Source: a virus. Taken from it: a DNA stretch of 64,000 nucleotides. Within the stretch, counting starts at the first letter, position 1; every line of letters begins with the position of its first letter. Below the pieces are notes generated by a model that had not been told where the DNA came from, did not search any database, and saw only the letters and a list, made by a program, of their open reading frames with translations. The position numbers were made by a program, and so were the translations under genes. This document shows positions 2-10,409 of the stretch, piece by piece. The stretch covers positions 5,688 to 69,687 of IMG/VR virus record IMGVR_UViG_3300025138_000032; one strand, given 5' to 3'.

Positions 2-2161
2 AATGAAAGAGTAGATGACAGAGTTAATGCATTACTAGTTGCCGGAACAGGCATTACATCTACATACGATGATGCCGCTGGAACACTTACACTTAACGGA
101 CAAGTTGGTGATGTAACAAGTGTTGTCGCTGGAACTGGTCTAACAGGTGGTGGAACAAGTGGTGATGTAACAGTAAATGTTGTTGGTGGTACAGGTATAA
201 TCGCAAATGCGAATGATATCGCAATCGATACTTCTGTAACAGTAGATTTAACTACTAGTCAAACACTTTCAGGCAAAACACTAACATCTCCAATCTTAAA
301 TACTGCTCTATCTGGTACTGCATTCTTAGACGAAGACGACTTCTCAAGTAATGCGAATGATAAAGTTGCATCTCAACAATCTATTAAAACATATGTTGAT
401 GCATCTGTTGCCGCTAAAGACAATACAGACGAAATCACTGAAGGTTCATCAAATCTATACTTCACAAATGAAAGAGTAGACGATAGAGTAGATGCTCTAC
501 TAACTTCTGGTGTCAATGTCGCTATGACATATGACGATGCAAATGGAAGTTTAGAGATTAGAGTACCTTTTGAGAATATACAAGATACAGTTGGTACTCA
601 GATTGCAACCAATGGTTCACATACAGGTCTTACTGCAACATATGATGATGCTGGTGACGGCGCTATAGACCTTGCAGTATCAACATCACATGTTAGGGGT
701 TTAATATCTGCTGGTGGTGACTTATCATACAACAGTACAACTGGTGTAATGAGTTTCACAAACGATGCTGGAGATATTTCTTCAGTAGTTGCTGGAACTG
801 GTACAACAGGTGGTGGAACTGCTGGCGATGTAACAATTAATGTTATTGGTGGCGATGGTATTACTGCAAACGCAAACGATATCGCATTATCATCTTCAGT
901 CGCTGGTGATGGTCTTGCATTCTCAAGTGGTATTCTTGCAGTAAATGTAGATGATTCATCAATCGAAACAAGTTCAGACACATTACAAGTAAAAGCAAGT
1001 GGTGTCACAAATGCCATGCTGGCAGGGTCAATCGGTGCAGATAAACTTGCAGGTTCAATAGGGAACGCAAAACTATCTAACTCATCAATTACAATAGACG
1101 GAAGTGCTGTTTCATTGGGTGGTTCAATAACTACTACAAATACACAACTTACACAAGAACAAGTCGAAGACTTTGTTGGTGGTATGTTAGATGGTACCGA
1201 AACAGGTATCTCTGTATCATACGATGATACAAATGGTAATCTTGACTTTGTTATTGGCGCTGACGACATTACTAACGATATGTTGGCAGGGTCAATTAAT
1301 CAATCCAAACTTGCAGGTTCAATTGCAAACGCAAAACTTGCTAATAGTACGATAACAATTGATGGACAATCAGTTGCATTGGGTGGTTCAGTCACAACAA
1401 CTAACACTCAATTATCAACAGAGAATGTACAAGATATCGCTGGGGCGATGTTCTCAAGTAATACTGAAAGTGGTATTACTGCAACATATCAAGATGCAGA
1501 TGGTACAATCGATTTAGATGTTAATGACCCAACAATATCCTTGACAGGCGATGTGACAGGTTCTGCTACAATGACCAATTTAGGTAATGTTAGTATCTCT
1601 ACTACAGTCGCTGCTAACTCAGTCGCACTTGGAACAGATACAACAGGTAACTATGTCGCAGGTGTAAGTGCAGGAACTGGTGTCTCAGTAAGTGGTTCTG
1701 GAGAAGGCGCAACTTCAACAGTAAGTATTGGACAGGCAGTTTCAACATCAAGTAATGTTCAATTTGCAAACTTAGTGTTATCAGGCAACTTGACAGTTAA
1801 TGGTGCAACATCAACAGTTAGTTCAACTAACACAACAATCGAAGATGCATTGATAGAATTAGGGACAGGTACTTCTGGTACGCCTTCTAACGATGCAGGT
1901 TTTGTTATTGAAAGAGGAAGTTCTGACAATGTATTCATTGGTTGGGACGAGAGTGCAGATGCGATAACATTTGGTACTGGTAGTTTTACTGGTGCATCTA
2001 CAGGTAATTTAAGTATTACACCAAGTGCAGTTAATACAGGCGCCTTGACGATTACTAATGCTAGTAACTCAGGCGGAACTGCGAGAAACATATATCAGTC
2101 AACATCAGCTCCAGGCGGAAGTGATGGCGCAGTTGGCGATTTATGGGTTCTCTACTCTTAA
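2..2161 (+). CDS. Long tail-fibre/adhesin-like structural protein (5' end outside the window)
   Basis: The frame of ORF 524..2161 is open back to base 2. It is G/S/T/A/D-rich with internal repeats (NERVDDRV; TITIDGxxVxLGGSxTTTNTQL twice; YDD motifs) and ends in a typical fibre tip, SAPGGSDGAVGDLW. Confidence 0.75.
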   Translation, partial: NERVDDRVNALLVAGTGITSTYDDAAGTLTLNGQVGDVTSVVAGTGLTGGGTSGDVTVNVVGGTGIIANANDIAIDTSVTVDLTTSQTLSGKTLTSPILNTALSGTAFLDEDDFSSNANDKVASQQSIKTYVDASVAAKDNTDEITEGSSNLYFTNERVDDRVDALLTSGVNVAMTYDDANGSLEIRVPFENIQDTVGTQIATNGSHTGLTATYDDAGDGAIDLAVSTSHVRGLISAGGDLSYNSTTGVMSFTNDAGDISSVVAGTGTTGGGTAGDVTINVIGGDGITANANDIALSSSVAGDGLAFSSGILAVNVDDSSIETSSDTLQVKASGVTNAMLAGSIGADKLAGSIGNAKLSNSSITIDGSAVSLGGSITTTNTQLTQEQVEDFVGGMLDGTETGISVSYDDTNGNLDFVIGADDITNDMLAGSINQSKLAGSIANAKLANSTITIDGQSVALGGSVTTTNTQLSTENVQDIAGAMFSSNTESGITATYQDADGTIDLDVNDPTISLTGDVTGSATMTNLGNVSISTTVAANSVALGTDTTGNYVAGVSAGTGVSVSGSGEGATSTVSIGQAVSTSSNVQFANLVLSGNLTVNGATSTVSSTNTTIEDALIELGTGTSGTPSNDAGFVIERGSSDNVFIGWDESADAITFGTGSFTGASTGNLSITPSAVNTGALTITNASNSGGTARNIYQSTSAPGGSDGAVGDLWVLYS

Positions 2162-2188: not shown

Positions 2189-4255
2189 ATGGCGACAGGT
2201 TCACAAAAGGTCAAAACACCAACAGGTTGGAATTCTACAAGAGGTGCATGGGTAAAAACTGCATCTGGTACTTGGAAAGATGCAGAACAAATCTATGTCA
2301 AGACTCCAACAGGTTGGAATAACGCTTCAGGACAGGCAAGTGTCCAACAACCTTATCCGTACATTGCTAACGCTCAAGAACCCAATATAAGAAATAAACA
2401 AAACCCTTATCCTTATATTGCTAACGCTCAACAACCGAATATAAGAAATGCACAACAACCGTATCCTTATATCGCAAACAATCAAGAGCCTAATATTAGA
2501 GATGCAAGACAACCTGCGATTTATCAAAATCCAGTAAGCGCACAAGAACCTAATATTAGAAGTCAACAAGAACCTAATATTAGAAGTCAACAAGAACCTA
2601 ATATTAGACCGGCGAGACAACCTTCTACATATCAACATAGAAGTCCGTCAACATATAGAGACCCTAGAACATATCAACATCCGACTACCTATCAGCATAG
2701 AAGTCCTTTGACTTATCAACATAGAAGTCCATTGACTTATCAGCATAGAAGTCCGTTGACATATCAACATAGGTCTCCTTCTACTTATCAACATAGAGAA
2801 CCGAACACTTATAACCATAGGTCACCTTATAGAAGTCCGTTTACTTACAATCATAGAAGTCCTTTGACATATCAGCATAGGTCGCCATTTACATATCGTA
2901 ATCCGTTTACCTATAATCATAGAAGTCCGTTGATTTATCAACATAGGTCTCCTTATAGAAGTCCGTCCACTTATCAACATAGAGAACCGAACACTTATAA
3001 CCATAGGTCACCTTATAGAAGTCCGTCCACTTATCAACATAGAGAACCGAACACTTATAACCATAGGTCGCCATTTACATATCGTAATCCGTTTACCTAT
3101 AATCATAGAAGTCCGTTGATTTATAACCATAGGTCGCCACTTACATATGACCATAGGTCGCCATTTACATATCGTAATCCGTTTACCTATCAACATAGAA
3201 GTCCTTTAACATATAATCATAGAAGTCCGTTGATTTATCAGCATAGGTCGCCATTTACATATCGTAATCCGTTTACCTATAATCATAGAAGTCCGTTGAT
3301 TTATCAGCATAGAAGTCCGTTGACATATCAGCATCAAAGTCCTTCGACATATCAGCTTCCGTTTACATATCGTAATCCGTTTACATATAACCATAGGTCG
3401 CCATTTACATATCGTAATCCGTTTACCTATCGTAATCCGTTTACATATAACCATAGGTCGCCTTCTACATATAACCATAGGTCGCCTTCTACATATAACC
3501 ATAGGTCGCCATTTGGATATCAGCTTCCGTTTACCTATCGTAATCCGTTTACATATAACAACAGACAACCGTTTACTTACAATCATAGAGAACCGTATAC
3601 TGTTAATGCAAGACAACCATTTACATATAATGCTCGTACTGGAGTTAATGTTCAGACTGCATCACAACAACCAAGTAGTTACTCATTCCGTAACCCAATC
3701 ACTTTCCCACCAGGTGGTGGCGGAGGCGGCGGCGGAGGTTGCTTTGCTCCAGGTTCAATGATATGGCTTGCAGATGGAAGTCATTCGCCTATCGAGTCAT
3801 GTGTTCTTGGTCAATATGTAATGACTTGGAACGAAAGTACAAAACTTCTAGAACCTAGAGAGATATCTCTAATCATGAAACCAAGAATGTGTCCTATATT
3901 TGATGTTACATTCTCAGATGGAAGAATATTACAAATGACTGATACTCACCCATTAATGTTACCAAATGGCCAATGGGGTGCATTTGATGTTGAGAAATCA
4001 ATTAGAGAACATGAATGGATGCAAGATATTGAAACGCATGAACTTACAGTTGGCGATAGTGTCTTTAGTATGTTAGATGGTATAATGTTTGACAGACAAG
4101 ACGAAATGGGCTTAGAAATAGTATCTATAGAAGAACATTCTGAAATGGAAGTACATAACTTAAGTGGAGTTTATGAAAACAATAACTTCTTTGTTAATGG
4201 AATGCTCGCTCATAACTTTGGTAATCAGAGTCAGAATACCCAGGCGAAGAACTAA
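2189..4255 (+). CDS. Repeat fibre protein A: VKTxxGW N-terminal motifs, short QEPNIR tract, long TYxHRSP tract, Gly9 linker, C-terminal Hint domain
   Basis: Repeats are visible in the translation. The Hint domain starts CFAPGSMIWLADG, has TDTHPL (block B) and ends VHNL...FFVNGMLAHN. Confidence 0.85.
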   Translation: MATGSQKVKTPTGWNSTRGAWVKTASGTWKDAEQIYVKTPTGWNNASGQASVQQPYPYIANAQEPNIRNKQNPYPYIANAQQPNIRNAQQPYPYIANNQEPNIRDARQPAIYQNPVSAQEPNIRSQQEPNIRSQQEPNIRPARQPSTYQHRSPSTYRDPRTYQHPTTYQHRSPLTYQHRSPLTYQHRSPLTYQHRSPSTYQHREPNTYNHRSPYRSPFTYNHRSPLTYQHRSPFTYRNPFTYNHRSPLIYQHRSPYRSPSTYQHREPNTYNHRSPYRSPSTYQHREPNTYNHRSPFTYRNPFTYNHRSPLIYNHRSPLTYDHRSPFTYRNPFTYQHRSPLTYNHRSPLIYQHRSPFTYRNPFTYNHRSPLIYQHRSPLTYQHQSPSTYQLPFTYRNPFTYNHRSPFTYRNPFTYRNPFTYNHRSPSTYNHRSPSTYNHRSPFGYQLPFTYRNPFTYNNRQPFTYNHREPYTVNARQPFTYNARTGVNVQTASQQPSSYSFRNPITFPPGGGGGGGGGCFAPGSMIWLADGSHSPIESCVLGQYVMTWNESTKLLEPREISLIMKPRMCPIFDVTFSDGRILQMTDTHPLMLPNGQWGAFDVEKSIREHEWMQDIETHELTVGDSVFSMLDGIMFDRQDEMGLEIVSIEEHSEMEVHNLSGVYENNNFFVNGMLAHNFGNQSQNTQAKN
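2354..3643 (+). repeat. Coding tandem repeat tract A: 58 units of 4/6/8/10 aa (1290 nt)
   Basis: Mostly Pro-terminated units such as NIRSQQEP, LTYQHRSP, FTYRNP and YRSP. Confidence 0.95.
3740..4216 (+). other. Hint (intein-like/BIL-type) autoprocessing domain within protein A
   Basis: Cys1 follows poly-Gly; TxxH motif; terminal His-Asn followed by Phe rather than C/S/T; no endonuclease insert. Confidence 0.85.
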
Positions 4256-4303
4256 AATGATAATACTAACAAACAAAAATATGATAGTAAGGGGTAATAT
4301 CTA

Positions 4304-5722
4304 ATGCCACAACAACCGGTAATAGCAAACGCTCAGACGACTGTTAGGTCTCCAAGCATAGGACAACAACCTTATATTGCTAATGGTCAAACACCATTTA
4401 TTCAACCTACGCAGGGTCCTGCTATAAGAAACGGCCAGACGCCGTATATTGCGAATGGGCAGTCACCTAGTAATGCAAGAAGTCCGAGAAACGCACAGCA
4501 ACCTAATATTAGAAATAATCAAGAACCTAATATTAGAAATAATCAAGAACCTAACATTAGAAGTGCCCAATCACCTAGTAATGCACAATCACCTAGTAAC
4601 GCACAAGAACCTAACATTAGAAGTGCCCAGTCACCTAGTAATGCAAGAAGTCCAAGAAACGCACAAGAACCTAACATTAGAAGTCAACAAGAACCTAACA
4701 GTAGAAGTCAACAAGAACCTAATATTAGGAATGCTCAGTCACCTAGTAATGCACAACAACCTAATAGTAGAAGTCAACAAGAACCTAATATTAGAAACCA
4801 ACAAGAACCTAACATTAGAGATGCTCAGTCACCTAGTAGCGCACAGCAACCTAACATTAGAAGTCAACAACAACCTAATATTAGAAGTCAACAAGAACCT
4901 AATATTAGAGATGCTCAGTCGCCTAGTAATGCACAAGAACCTAATATAAGAAGTTATCAGTCTCCTTATATTGCTAACGCACAAACATCAGCACAAGAAC
5001 CTAATATAAGAAATTATCAGTCTCCTTATATTGCGAATAGACAAAATACAGCACAACAACCTAATAGTAGAAGTCAACAAGAACCTAATATTAGAAATGC
5101 TCAGTCACCTAGTAATGCACAAGAACCTAACATTAGAAGTCAACAAGAACCTAATATTCGTTCAGCACAAGCATCAGCACAAGAACCAAACATAAGAAGT
5201 TATCAGTCTCCTTATATTGCGAATGCTCAGAATCCTTTTATTAGAAATCAACAAGAACCTAATATTAGAAATCAACAAGAACCTAACATTAGAAATCAAC
5301 AAGAACCTAATATAAGAAACAAACAGACTACTTCTAATTATCAGAATCCTGTAAATGCTCAGAATCCATTTATTAGAAATAGACAGACACCATTTACATA
5401 TGACCATAGAAGTCCGTTGACATATGACCATAGGTCACCATTGATTTATAATCATAGAAGTCCGTTTACTTACAGGCATCCTGGAAATAGTCAGACTCCG
5501 TTTACCTATCAACATAGAAGTCCTTCAACATATGCTAGACAAGGTCAAACACCTTTCACATATCAACATAGAAGTCCTTCGACATATGCTAGACAAGGTC
5601 AGACGCCAACAACCTATCAACATAGAAGTCCTTCGACATATGCTAGACAAGGACAAACACCTGTTATCCGTTGGGATGGTGTTCTATCGCAGACCTGGCC
5701 AGGCACTCCTATATCGTCATAA
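4304..5722 (+). CDS. Repeat fibre protein B: long QEPNIR/AQSP tract followed by a short TYxHRSP tract
   Basis: Translation; SD-like AAGGGG upstream; same repeat vocabulary as protein A. Confidence 0.85.
   Translation: MPQQPVIANAQTTVRSPSIGQQPYIANGQTPFIQPTQGPAIRNGQTPYIANGQSPSNARSPRNAQQPNIRNNQEPNIRNNQEPNIRSAQSPSNAQSPSNAQEPNIRSAQSPSNARSPRNAQEPNIRSQQEPNSRSQQEPNIRNAQSPSNAQQPNSRSQQEPNIRNQQEPNIRDAQSPSSAQQPNIRSQQQPNIRSQQEPNIRDAQSPSNAQEPNIRSYQSPYIANAQTSAQEPNIRNYQSPYIANRQNTAQQPNSRSQQEPNIRNAQSPSNAQEPNIRSQQEPNIRSAQASAQEPNIRSYQSPYIANAQNPFIRNQQEPNIRNQQEPNIRNQQEPNIRNKQTTSNYQNPVNAQNPFIRNRQTPFTYDHRSPLTYDHRSPLIYNHRSPFTYRHPGNSQTPFTYQHRSPSTYARQGQTPFTYQHRSPSTYARQGQTPTTYQHRSPSTYARQGQTPVIRWDGVLSQTWPGTPISS
4373..5662 (+). 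repeat. Coding tandem repeat tract B: 58 units (1290 nt), mirror of tract A in unit lengths
   Basis: Units such as NIRSQQEP, SNAQEP, AQEP and STYARQGQTP. Confidence 0.95.
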
Positions 5723-5749: not shown

Positions 5750-7297
5750 ATGAGTATCAAAAGCAAATCATTCGAGCATACAAAGGAATTACTCCAAGGA
5801 CTCGACCCAACAGATAAGAGTTTTCATCTACAGTTGGGTCAGTTCGATGTTCTAAAAGAATACAAAGAAACAGACACATACAAATCATTAAAGTATGTTA
5901 CAGAGAATCACACCGGAAAACTAAAACAAGTTAAATGGGGTGACATGACTAAACTAATCAAGGAAGAGAAATTTCTTGGTTGGAATAAACTACAGTCCCA
6001 TGCATGGGCATATCATTACTTTCTACCCCACGGATATACTGCACCGGAAGAAACTCCAGTACCAGGAATTTCGGGAATGGATTTTAAAAATTCTAACAAT
6101 GAATATCAAAAGTTAGAAGACTTCACTGATAAAAAACTAAATGACCAACAGAATAACAGTATCAATTCTGTATATTATCATGGCGCCAAGGCTCATTGGT
6201 TAGTAGATAGTATCAGAGAAGAGGGTCTATGGAATGCTATTCAAGGCACTGTAAGTTTAGCAGGAAAAAATAAAGATGGAGAACAGATGTATCAGTTATC
6301 AATACATCCAGGTTCAGTTCGTTCTGGTGTATTTGAAACAATGGATGACCCAAATTTAGATTTATGGATATGGGACAATCATGATGCTATACCTTTACCA
6401 GAGACATCTATAGATGAAATGATTGATGAGATGAAAGGGCAACTTATAGAACGAGATGCAGAACACTATTCAATATCTTTTGGATATACTCGTGGTTACT
6501 TAGAGATACATAGTGACTTATTGAAGATGAACTTCAGAGGAAGTGTAACCGATTATAACATGAAAGTTAACCAATTGTCAAAGGGTAAACATCTAAACAT
6601 ATACATTGGTTACGATTCTAGACATACTGATATCGCTGAGTTAAGTGCAAAATGTGTTAAAAGTAGTATATTATCTGGTGCCGGCAGAGGCGATGTGCAT
6701 GATGTATTAGGAGATTGGACTCCTGAGATAAAGTTTCTTGACATATCAAAGATTCCAGAGTATAATAGAGAGTATGCAGCTCAATCAACAGAGTTCACAT
6801 ATAGTAGATTCTTAATTCCTTACTTGGAAAACTATGAAGGATTTAGTATTTTTATTGATGATGATATACTATTCAATGAAAGTATCTTACCAATGTTCTA
6901 CTACTTAGACTTAGACGATGCAGTTGCATGTGTACAGTATGACTTTGATAGTTATGCTGAAACAAAATTTAACGGTGAAAAGAATGTATCTTATCCTAAA
7001 AAACTTTGGTCTTCTTTGATGATATTTAATAATGGTCATGAAGACTGTAAGAAACTTACACCAGAAGTTGTTAATACTGAAAGTGGTAAGTATCTACATC
7101 AATTTGAATGGACAGATAAGATATCAGAGATACCAGAGTGGTATGTTATAACAGAAGGACACGATACAGTAGAAGATAAGTGGCGTGCTTGTGCTATACA
7201 TTACACACGAGGCGGTCCTTGGATTGAAGATATGGATATCTCTCAGATAGAACACCTAAATATGTATGAAAGATTAAAAAATAAACATCAAAACTAA
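5750..7297 (+). CDS. Fusion: ParB/Srx-like N-terminal domain plus GT-A (GT8-like) glycosyltransferase
   Basis: C-terminal half has IYIGYDSR, QSTEFTYSRFLIP, DDD, WSSLMIFN and HYTRGGPW, typical of phage GT8-like proteins. N-terminal half has LVDSIREEG...HPGSVR, loosely ParB-like. Confidence 0.7.
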   Translation: MSIKSKSFEHTKELLQGLDPTDKSFHLQLGQFDVLKEYKETDTYKSLKYVTENHTGKLKQVKWGDMTKLIKEEKFLGWNKLQSHAWAYHYFLPHGYTAPEETPVPGISGMDFKNSNNEYQKLEDFTDKKLNDQQNNSINSVYYHGAKAHWLVDSIREEGLWNAIQGTVSLAGKNKDGEQMYQLSIHPGSVRSGVFETMDDPNLDLWIWDNHDAIPLPETSIDEMIDEMKGQLIERDAEHYSISFGYTRGYLEIHSDLLKMNFRGSVTDYNMKVNQLSKGKHLNIYIGYDSRHTDIAELSAKCVKSSILSGAGRGDVHDVLGDWTPEIKFLDISKIPEYNREYAAQSTEFTYSRFLIPYLENYEGFSIFIDDDILFNESILPMFYYLDLDDAVACVQYDFDSYAETKFNGEKNVSYPKKLWSSLMIFNNGHEDCKKLTPEVVNTESGKYLHQFEWTDKISEIPEWYVITEGHDTVEDKWRACAIHYTRGGPWIEDMDISQIEHLNMYERLKNKHQN

Positions 7298-10401: not shown

Positions 10402-10409
10402 TATAAATA
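10402..10409 (+). promoter_or_regulatory. T4-type late promoter TATAAATA (others at 17768, 41661, 49414 and before gp18 and gp22; CATAAATA variants at 5718, 10122, 24017, 31814, 38275)
   Basis: Consensus gp55-dependent motif upstream of structural genes. Confidence 0.8.

Follow-up and report, generated by a model that had tools for sequence, protein, structure and literature searches.

The window analysed here is a stretch of 64,000 nucleotides (nt), positions 5,688 to 69,687 of the IMG/VR virus record IMGVR_UViG_3300025138_000032, and our subject is a pair of plus-strand genes within it, A and B, which encode two repeat-rich putative fibre chains, the first ending in a Hint domain. Gene A (2189..4255) is an open reading frame (ORF) for the 688-residue precursor of fibre chain A, and its synteny is retained in 13 close loci as well as in more distant ones. 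The precursor opens with a conserved N-terminal domain (residues 1-54, 2189..2350), delimited by identity across pairs and carrying the motif VKTPTGWN twice. Repeats follow (2351..3712), recognized by Pro spacing and unit listing as Pro-led units of eight or six residues, initially of the PNIRxxQE and PYIANAQx types and then of the PxTYxHRS type; over ~450 residues the Pro spacing is eight residues 40 times and six residues 14 times. The sequence ITFPP (residues 504-508) lies directly before a run of nine glycines (Gly9, residues 509-517, 3713..3739) that ends the N-extein and marks the proposed turn. This run is encoded by mixed Gly codons and is thus not a slippage run. Relatives are Gly-rich here too, with two to nine glycines in the last 10 residues ahead of Cys1 among 22 distinct A proteins, and A proteins without a Hint have Gly-rich ends as well.

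Profiles, a fold model and relatives identify the next 159 residues (Cys518-Asn676, 3740..4216) as a mini-Hint resembling bacterial intein-like (BIL) domains. The domain begins with Cys518-Phe-Ala-Pro-Gly (Cys518 codon at 3740-3742), its TxxH motif comprises Thr584 and His587 (3938-3949), and it closes with His675-Asn676 (4211-4216). As delimited from the sequence and a tally of tails, the C-extein is a 12-residue tail, FGNQSQNTQAKN (4217..4252), with Phe677 at +1 (4217-4219) and Lys687 at 4247-4249. The TAA stop of A (4253-4255) and a 48-nt spacer (together 4253..4303) separate this tail from gene B; the spacer holds a further in-frame TAA (4295-4297) and a Shine-Dalgarno sequence, AAGGGG (4289-4294), that ends 9 nt short of the gene B ATG at 4304. 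Gene B (4304..5722) is an ORF for fibre chain B, 472 residues of repeats and then a conserved end, TPVIRWDGVLSQTWPGTPISS; the length law and reversed complementarity described below tie it to A. The initial annotation had drawn the same layout, from ITFPP-Gly9-Cys through His-Asn to the 48-nt gap with its in-frame TAA stops and Shine-Dalgarno sequence, and every element lies where it was placed.

That annotation had also drawn attention to the spacer with two stops in the frame shared by A and B. Among relatives the A-B gap ranges from -1 to 48 nt, and the two genes have a common frame in six of 18 distinct pairs; the shared frame and the 48-nt spacer of the window can be regarded as incidental, with no conserved meaning. 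Because gap and frame differ among relatives, read-through or frameshifting that would join A to B was dismissed. The spacer contains only two promoter-like matches, both sigma-70-like at 9 of 12 positions (regional total 18, against a shuffle mean of 13.8), and the two terminator-like sites between 2000 and 5900, a number expected by chance, both lie outside it.

The repeat parts of A and B matched no PHROGs or Pfam family, and the family matches on the two proteins consist of the Hint on A plus one weak phrog_33328 match on B. A protein-cluster search with B returned nothing at or above 0.9, the Gp5_trimer_C and gp37_trimer clusters at 0.80-0.81 being within noise. Against GenBank phage records, neither megablast with A and B nor tblastn with the first 140 residues of A gave a match.

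A BIL-like Hint domain at the end of chain A

The Pfam model Intein_splicing matches the window Hint over its whole length (E 5e-7, 30.0 bits, below the curated cut-off), and a search of 1.84 billion representatives returned 1759 relatives at E<=1e-3. An alignment of 29 sequences (27-68% identity) shows no variation at Cys1, Phe2, the block-B His or the penultimate His, and the block-B Thr and terminal Asn are conserved in at least 90%. An AlphaFold2 model built with this alignment has a predicted local distance difference test score of 86.5 and a predicted template modelling (TM) score of 0.82. Foldseek with this model placed four chains of the Tetrahymena BUBL1 domain BIL2 at the top (E 1.9e-10 to 1.6e-9, TM score by target 0.80-0.86), followed by DnaB mini-inteins, the Clostridium thermocellum BIL at rank 12 and Hedgehog at ranks 17 and 20; there were 60 PDB matches at E<=0.001, and all among the matches listed are Hint domains. 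Family profile E-values follow the same direction, with 1e-23 for BIL2, 1.5e-19 for the C. thermocellum BIL (2LWY) and 2.9e-14 for the best canonical intein.

Residues were tallied in 171 full-length domains from 120 proteins, out of 150 listed representatives. Among these listed matches, Cys1 is present in 171/171 and His-Asn closes the domain in 164/171, while the +1 residue is Lys in 84/171 and Cys, Ser or Thr in just 10/171. All 22 A-family proteins have F, G, M, Y, L or R at +1. A genuine Cys1 Hint lacking a +1 nucleophile, as the initial annotation had claimed, is thus borne out by Pfam, the fold model, Foldseek and relatives.

The available text of two reviews (PMC4031507 and PMC7765530) supplies the defining features of A-type BILs, and those seen here match them: Cys1, block-B TxxH, C-terminal His-Asn, no Cys, Ser or Thr at +1, a non-conserved host protein, a variable region, no homing endonuclease insert within 159 residues, and profile scores nearer to known BILs than to inteins. 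On this basis we assign residues 518-676 of A, from sequence and model, as an A-type BIL-like Hint with predicted autocatalytic cleavage.

Other assignments were rejected. Canonical class 1 mini-inteins (Npu, Ssp DnaB) share the fold, blocks A, B, F and G, Cys1 and His-Asn with the window Hint, but here +1 is Phe677, the domain does not interrupt an essential enzyme at a conserved site, and a non-conserved, dispensable tail of 12 residues serves as C-extein. The Hedgehog-type Hog domain has in common the Gly-Cys-Phe cleavage site and thioester chemistry at the end of a secreted or exposed N-terminal part, but is a weaker structural match; the window Hint retains His-Asn and is followed by just 12 residues, with no region for recognition of a sterol or other adduct, which speaks against the Hedgehog-like small-molecule capping that had been suggested for the fibre tip. 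PT-HINT (PF07591) was not listed for the window Hint even at E<=10, and no downstream domain is present, although PF07591 does match some relatives; of the profile checks that the initial annotation had proposed, the Intein_splicing match and the affinity for BILs held and PT-HINT did not. A split intein or fractured gene was set aside as well, the Hint being complete inside A and B opening straight into repeats.

Putative antiparallel pairing of A and B

The initial annotation had placed the Hint at the turn of an antiparallel zipper, a claim that depends on antiparallel A:B pairing; we therefore tested the pairing on relatives. In two scans of viral contigs A was complete in 115 loci, which gave 71 distinct A/B pairs. 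For the 24 distinct pairs that bear a Hint, the pre-Cys1 length of A rises with that of B at a slope of 0.9997 and an intercept of 40.8 (r=0.9996), with an A-minus-B difference of 40.7±2.8 residues over B lengths of 206-489. The repeat part follows the same law in 16 pairs in which A has a globular end (r=0.9992), and the law is kept in 25 of 31 pairs with a short-tailed A; one of the six outliers is a frameshifted A. Five Hint-less loci (L132, L135, L151, L154 and L166) depart from it by 17 to ~90 residues while near-identical sister loci conform, and these departures could reflect repeat collapse in assembly or true population variants.

Orientation was assessed by correlating smoothed profiles of aromatic residues between true partners and between partners taken from other loci. 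With B reversed, 15 non-redundant Hint-bearing pairs gave a mean correlation of -0.55 for true partners versus -0.08 for foreign ones; the true partner ranked 1 or 2 of 15 in 14 loci, and 0/20,000 permutations reached the mean. With B forward, the same pairs gave -0.01 versus -0.05 (p 0.23). Across 51 pairs of all classes, the reversed values were -0.37 versus 0.01 (0/20,000 permutations) and the forward values -0.08 versus -0.03. Parallel pairing was rejected on this forward comparison, which carries no locus-specific signal. The reversed signal is weaker in the short-tailed class (-0.18). Unit listings show like units mirrored close to the junction of A C-terminus and B N-terminus, with PxTY-type units facing PNIR/PYIAN-type units farther off, and this suggests that the mirrored like units near the junction account for the weaker signal.

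Conservation runs in opposite directions along the two chains. Over the 51 pairs, the mean pairwise identity of A falls from 0.78 in the first 45 residues to 0.13 in the last 30 repeat residues, and that of B rises from 0.25 in the first 30 residues to 0.50 in the last 22. The length law, the complementarity seen only with B reversed and this gradient fit, and support, a putative antiparallel A/B fibre and do not suit a parallel one, in agreement with the claim that the Hint lies at its turn. The conserved end (A N-terminus, B C-terminus) is presumably virion-proximal and the variable end distal; since the A C-terminus and B N-terminus are variable, the Hint would sit at the variable, probably distal end. 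Overall, the pair looks like a two-chain antiparallel fibre of a kind not previously described, judged by its sequences. A complex prediction with A 300-517 and B 1-215 gave a score of 0.00 with a poorly folded partner and weighs neither for nor against the pairing. In one clade (L134, L140, L161-L164 and L167) the order is reversed, with B 10 nt ahead of A, and a Gly run followed by a tail of ~17 residues closes A.

Distribution of the Hint among related pairs

The C-terminus of A occurs in three states among the 71 distinct pairs: a Hint (24), a short tail (31) or a globular domain (16). The sampling was seeded both ways, so these counts of presence and absence are no estimate of frequency. 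The initial annotation would have been undermined had such mirror pairs generally lacked the Hint; 47 of the 71 do lack it and 24 carry it, which goes part of the way, and the Hint is dispensable for the A/B pair. Short-tailed ends without a Hint are Gly-rich or aromatic, for example eight or nine glycines and then seven residues ending in Lys. Of the 31 short-tailed pairs, 25 have an A that is 41-58 residues longer than its B, the excess expected of a Hint-bearing A after excision, that is, the N-extein (+40.7±2.8) plus a tail of 4-29 residues. In the globular class, the domain spans ~140-150 residues and a 95-codon ORF lies between A and B in the 16 pairs. This ORF, at 6492-6779 in locus L095 and in the same place in 15 other loci, could encode a chaperone of the tip domain.

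A search seeded with the N-terminal 60 residues of A recovered 41 proteins of 385-522 residues, of which 36 end in a Hint and five in an unrelated Ser/Thr-rich globular region; the length filter of this search leaves out most short Hint-less forms. Homologues with A and B fused as one ORF were a further check that the initial annotation had proposed, and none occurs among the 71 distinct A genes and these 41 database proteins. One protein (P0089) continues past Hint and tail into ~16 residues of B-like repeat and then off-frame repeat translation, and looks like a frameshifted call and not a true A-B fusion. On another contig (L012/L023), a frameshift divides A between an ORF of 444 codons and a second, Hint-bearing one of 345 codons; this is either a pseudogene or an assembly error.

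A 68-row FastTree phylogeny of the GT8-like protein encoded nearby requires five changes in Hint presence, at least three of them forced by well-supported branches. In a FastTree phylogeny of 191 Hint domains, the 27 A-family Hints fall within one 33-row group (support 88) that also takes in two tail-fibre proteins, three truncated A-like fragments and one odd frame. Repeated acquisition of the Hint from outside is unsupported because the A-family Hints are nearly one clade, and these quick trees read as an old presence of the Hint with losses or cassette exchange and not as repeated capture.

Lysine-bearing tails

Among the representatives listed, no C-terminal Hint stops at its Asn, and tails of 1-29 residues follow in 53/53. 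The viral sample agrees: the Hint lies 30 residues or fewer from the C-terminus in 46 of 62 distinct Hint-bearing frames, some of them recognizable tail proteins, and 0/46 end at Asn. In the A family the tails measure 4-29 residues and have no conserved sequence besides Lys, which is present in 39/39 distinct tails. Lys makes up 13% of tail residues, versus 6/517 residues in the N-extein and 1/472 in B of the window; ends of Hint-less A proteins contain it in 11/22. For other C-terminal Hints, a tail Lys occurs in 43/48, versus 15.3 expected from background.

Relatives of the Hint also end unrelated tail proteins (Prophage_tail, phrog_3558 and central tail fibre J-like), with no B-like partner in view. 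Others occur in tandem, with up to seven copies linked by HN-K-(G)-CF (P0007, P0009, P0010, P0022 and others), or between ubiquitin-like repeats in the BUBL arrangement (P0051, P0074 and P0146). A tblastn search with the Hint against GenBank phage records matched 17 records, all at <60% identity; by gene, these matches fall in helicase (9), large terminase (2), P-loop NTPase (1), hypothetical (2) and unannotated records (4), and none of them is annotated as a fibre gene.

A proposed route of Hint removal

We propose, at a probability of roughly 0.6, that the Hint removes itself after translation through thioester formation and Asn cyclization, with possible rejoining of the tail via an amine; residue conservation, the fold model and analogy with known BILs argue for this route. 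An N-to-S acyl shift at Gly517-Cys518, implied by the conservation of Cys1 and TxxH, would give a thioester. The conserved His-Asn and the fact that no C-terminal Hint ends at Asn imply Asn676 cyclization, which would cut the Asn676-Phe677 bond. Water may then hydrolyse the thioester to leave A 1-517 with its Gly9 end, or the freed or still attached tail may attack it through an amine, for which the Phe677 alpha-amine and the Lys687 epsilon-amine are candidates, to yield A 1-517 joined to the 12-residue tail. The available text of PMC4031507 describes A-type BILs as cleaving and able to splice via a free amine, and that of PMC8616854 describes a Lys isopeptide that BIL2 forms with a C-extein lysine; from this lysine resolution and alpha-amine use, the Hint of chain A probably excises itself. 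Either excision product would correspond to the Hint-less A of related phages. We infer that the chemistry would run, that one of these nucleophiles would resolve the thioester and that the phage might benefit, with the Hint as a transient cap or timing device in A:B assembly; alternatively, the Hint may be simply tolerated. Among the three fates that the initial annotation had offered, self-cleavage is the best supported.

Several observations weigh against this proposal. The Pfam score of 30.0 bits lies below the cut-off of 35.8 bits, and NCBIfam intein_Nterm gives 21.5 versus 24.5 bits. Contrary to PMC4031507, the available text of PMC7765530 states that A-type BILs cleave and cannot ligate. 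Conservation of the catalytic residues would be expected either way and offers no pointer to the acting nucleophile. The closest compared pair of a Hint-bearing and a Hint-less locus (L165/L170, 75% A identity) has no clean empty site, and the single clade of A-family Hints suggests long vertical retention and a useful role over a passing parasite.

Ligation of A to B, another fate offered by the initial annotation, would differ in the nucleophile: once the antiparallel fibre has assembled, the amine at the start of B, on Pro2 exposed after Met removal, would attack the Gly517-Cys518 thioester in trans to give a covalent A-B hairpin with Gly9 as its turn. Length-matched antiparallel pairing would bring the A C-terminus beside the B N-terminus, the flexible Gly run suits a turn, and B begins with Met and then a small residue (Pro, Ala or Thr) in every inspected locus. 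Met before such a residue should permit Met removal. BIL chemistry accepts amine nucleophiles, for BIL2 also in trans, and if ligation took place the Hint would be a one-shot ligase giving a fibre topology encoded by no single gene of the family. Against this stand the 47 of 71 distinct pairs that lack a Hint, with the length law kept, and the lack of a fused A-B ORF among the A genes and database proteins surveyed. The B N-termini are alike in the Hint-bearing and Hint-less loci inspected, by eye and not by tally, the invariant Lys in the Hint's own tail is a nucleophile in cis, and the unrelated tail proteins that end in related Hints show no B-like partner. Such ligation is possible, being chemically reasonable and geometrically apt, but it is without specific support and we consider it unlikely.

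We also doubt that the Hint stays at the distal virion tip, whether as a resident tip domain or as a latent thioester that passes the fibre's C-terminal Gly to an outside nucleophile, be it an amine on the host surface, a small molecule or another virion protein. Other lineages do place a globular domain at the same site, which therefore tolerates and probably uses a resident tip, and Hedgehog and BIL2 demonstrate transfer to an outside nucleophile. The 4-29 residues that follow the Hint, however, include no adduct-recognition region, a thioester equilibrium would be unlikely to outlast cell thiols and long exposure to sea water, and the conserved His-Asn, obligatory post-Asn residue and tail Lys point to chemistry finished in cis. 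An inactive relic that no longer processes and persists as a passive C-terminal appendage would explain the scores below the curated Pfam and NCBIfam cut-offs, but is very improbable given that the catalytic positions are all intact and conserved down to 27% identity and that the fold is predicted with high confidence.

Relation to known systems

A-type BIL domains go back to Amitai 2003 and Dassa 2004, as cited in the available text of PMC4031507, with 2LWY from Clostridium thermocellum as a solved example. The window Hint resembles them in its mini-Hint fold, Cys1, TxxH, C-terminal His-Asn, absence of a +1 nucleophile and of an endonuclease, and residence in a hypervariable, non-conserved surface protein. 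It differs in that the host is a virus structural protein, the Hint lies at the extreme C-terminus with a Lys-bearing tail of 4-29 residues, a Gly run precedes it, and only some of the orthologous fibre genes carry it. Fold and profile comparisons both match it best to BIL2 of Tetrahymena thermophila BUBL (PDB 6TMM and 6Y75). In the available text of PMC8616854, the BIL2 N-extein ends in Gly-Gly and a C-extein Lys takes the thioester, as a tail Lys is invariant here; unlike the window Hint, which stands between a repeat fibre and a short peptide, BIL2 is a eukaryotic domain flanked by ubiquitin-like domains, and its role is to dispense ubiquitin-like proteins.

Phage tailspikes and fibres can carry C-terminal intramolecular chaperones of the Peptidase_S74 type, which cut themselves off with a Ser-Lys dyad in the trimer. 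These are alike in outline, as self-removing C-terminal fibre modules, but their fold and chemistry are unrelated, and our Pfam scan gave no match to this family. In the main texts covered by our literature searches we found no account of a BIL or Hint in phage fibres, only terminase and helicase inteins and general reviews; the main text of the pelagimyophage paper (PMC7029224) likewise makes no mention of inteins.

The domain type is thus known already, and what is new is that virion fibre proteins carry it as a facultative C-terminal module, that its tails follow a lysine rule, and that it occupies the variable end of a putatively antiparallel two-gene fibre of matched lengths. Descriptions of BIL-type Hints have concerned surface proteins and toxins of bacteria and the polyubiquitin loci of ciliates, and here they recur as a C-terminal module of virion proteins. 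The family rule of a Gly-rich lead-in, His-Asn, at least one post-Asn residue and a tail Lys leads to a concrete hypothesis for thioester resolution, and the Hint may serve as a marker for the variable end of an unusual two-gene fibre. A small natural module that removes itself after poly-Gly could also serve protein engineering.

Genomic context

The IMG/VR record behind the window comprises 69,687 bases at an estimated completeness of 38%. Gene content of the window is T4-type, with neck, sheath, tube, portal, prohead protease, major head protein, terminase and replication genes, and the major head protein is 67% identical to that of OM43 phage Melnitz and 66% to that of Pelagibacter phage HTVC008M; the source of gene A is an uncultured marine T4-like myovirus. 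The A/B locus lies 6 kb upstream of the neck genes and has as neighbours a fibre-like gene (2..2161), a GT8-like gene and 2OG-Fe(II) oxygenases. According to the available text of PMC7029224, the hypervariable host recognition cluster of pelagimyophages and cyanomyophages sits just upstream of the neck gene gp14, and because of this placement the A/B locus probably falls within the host recognition region, the cluster marker VrlC not having been located.

A T4-type late promoter motif, TATAAATA, occurs at 10402, 15157, 15165, 17768 and 20406, directly upstream of neck, sheath, portal and scaffold genes; its total count is eight, no higher than chance. None lies ahead of A or B or within the A-B spacer, so that the two genes are probably co-transcribed with the upstream fibre gene. 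The repeats also give rise to long ORFs that cross A and B on the minus strand or in other frames (within 2327-3616 and 4543-5656), such as a minus-strand one of 136 residues at 3206-3616; these are not genes.

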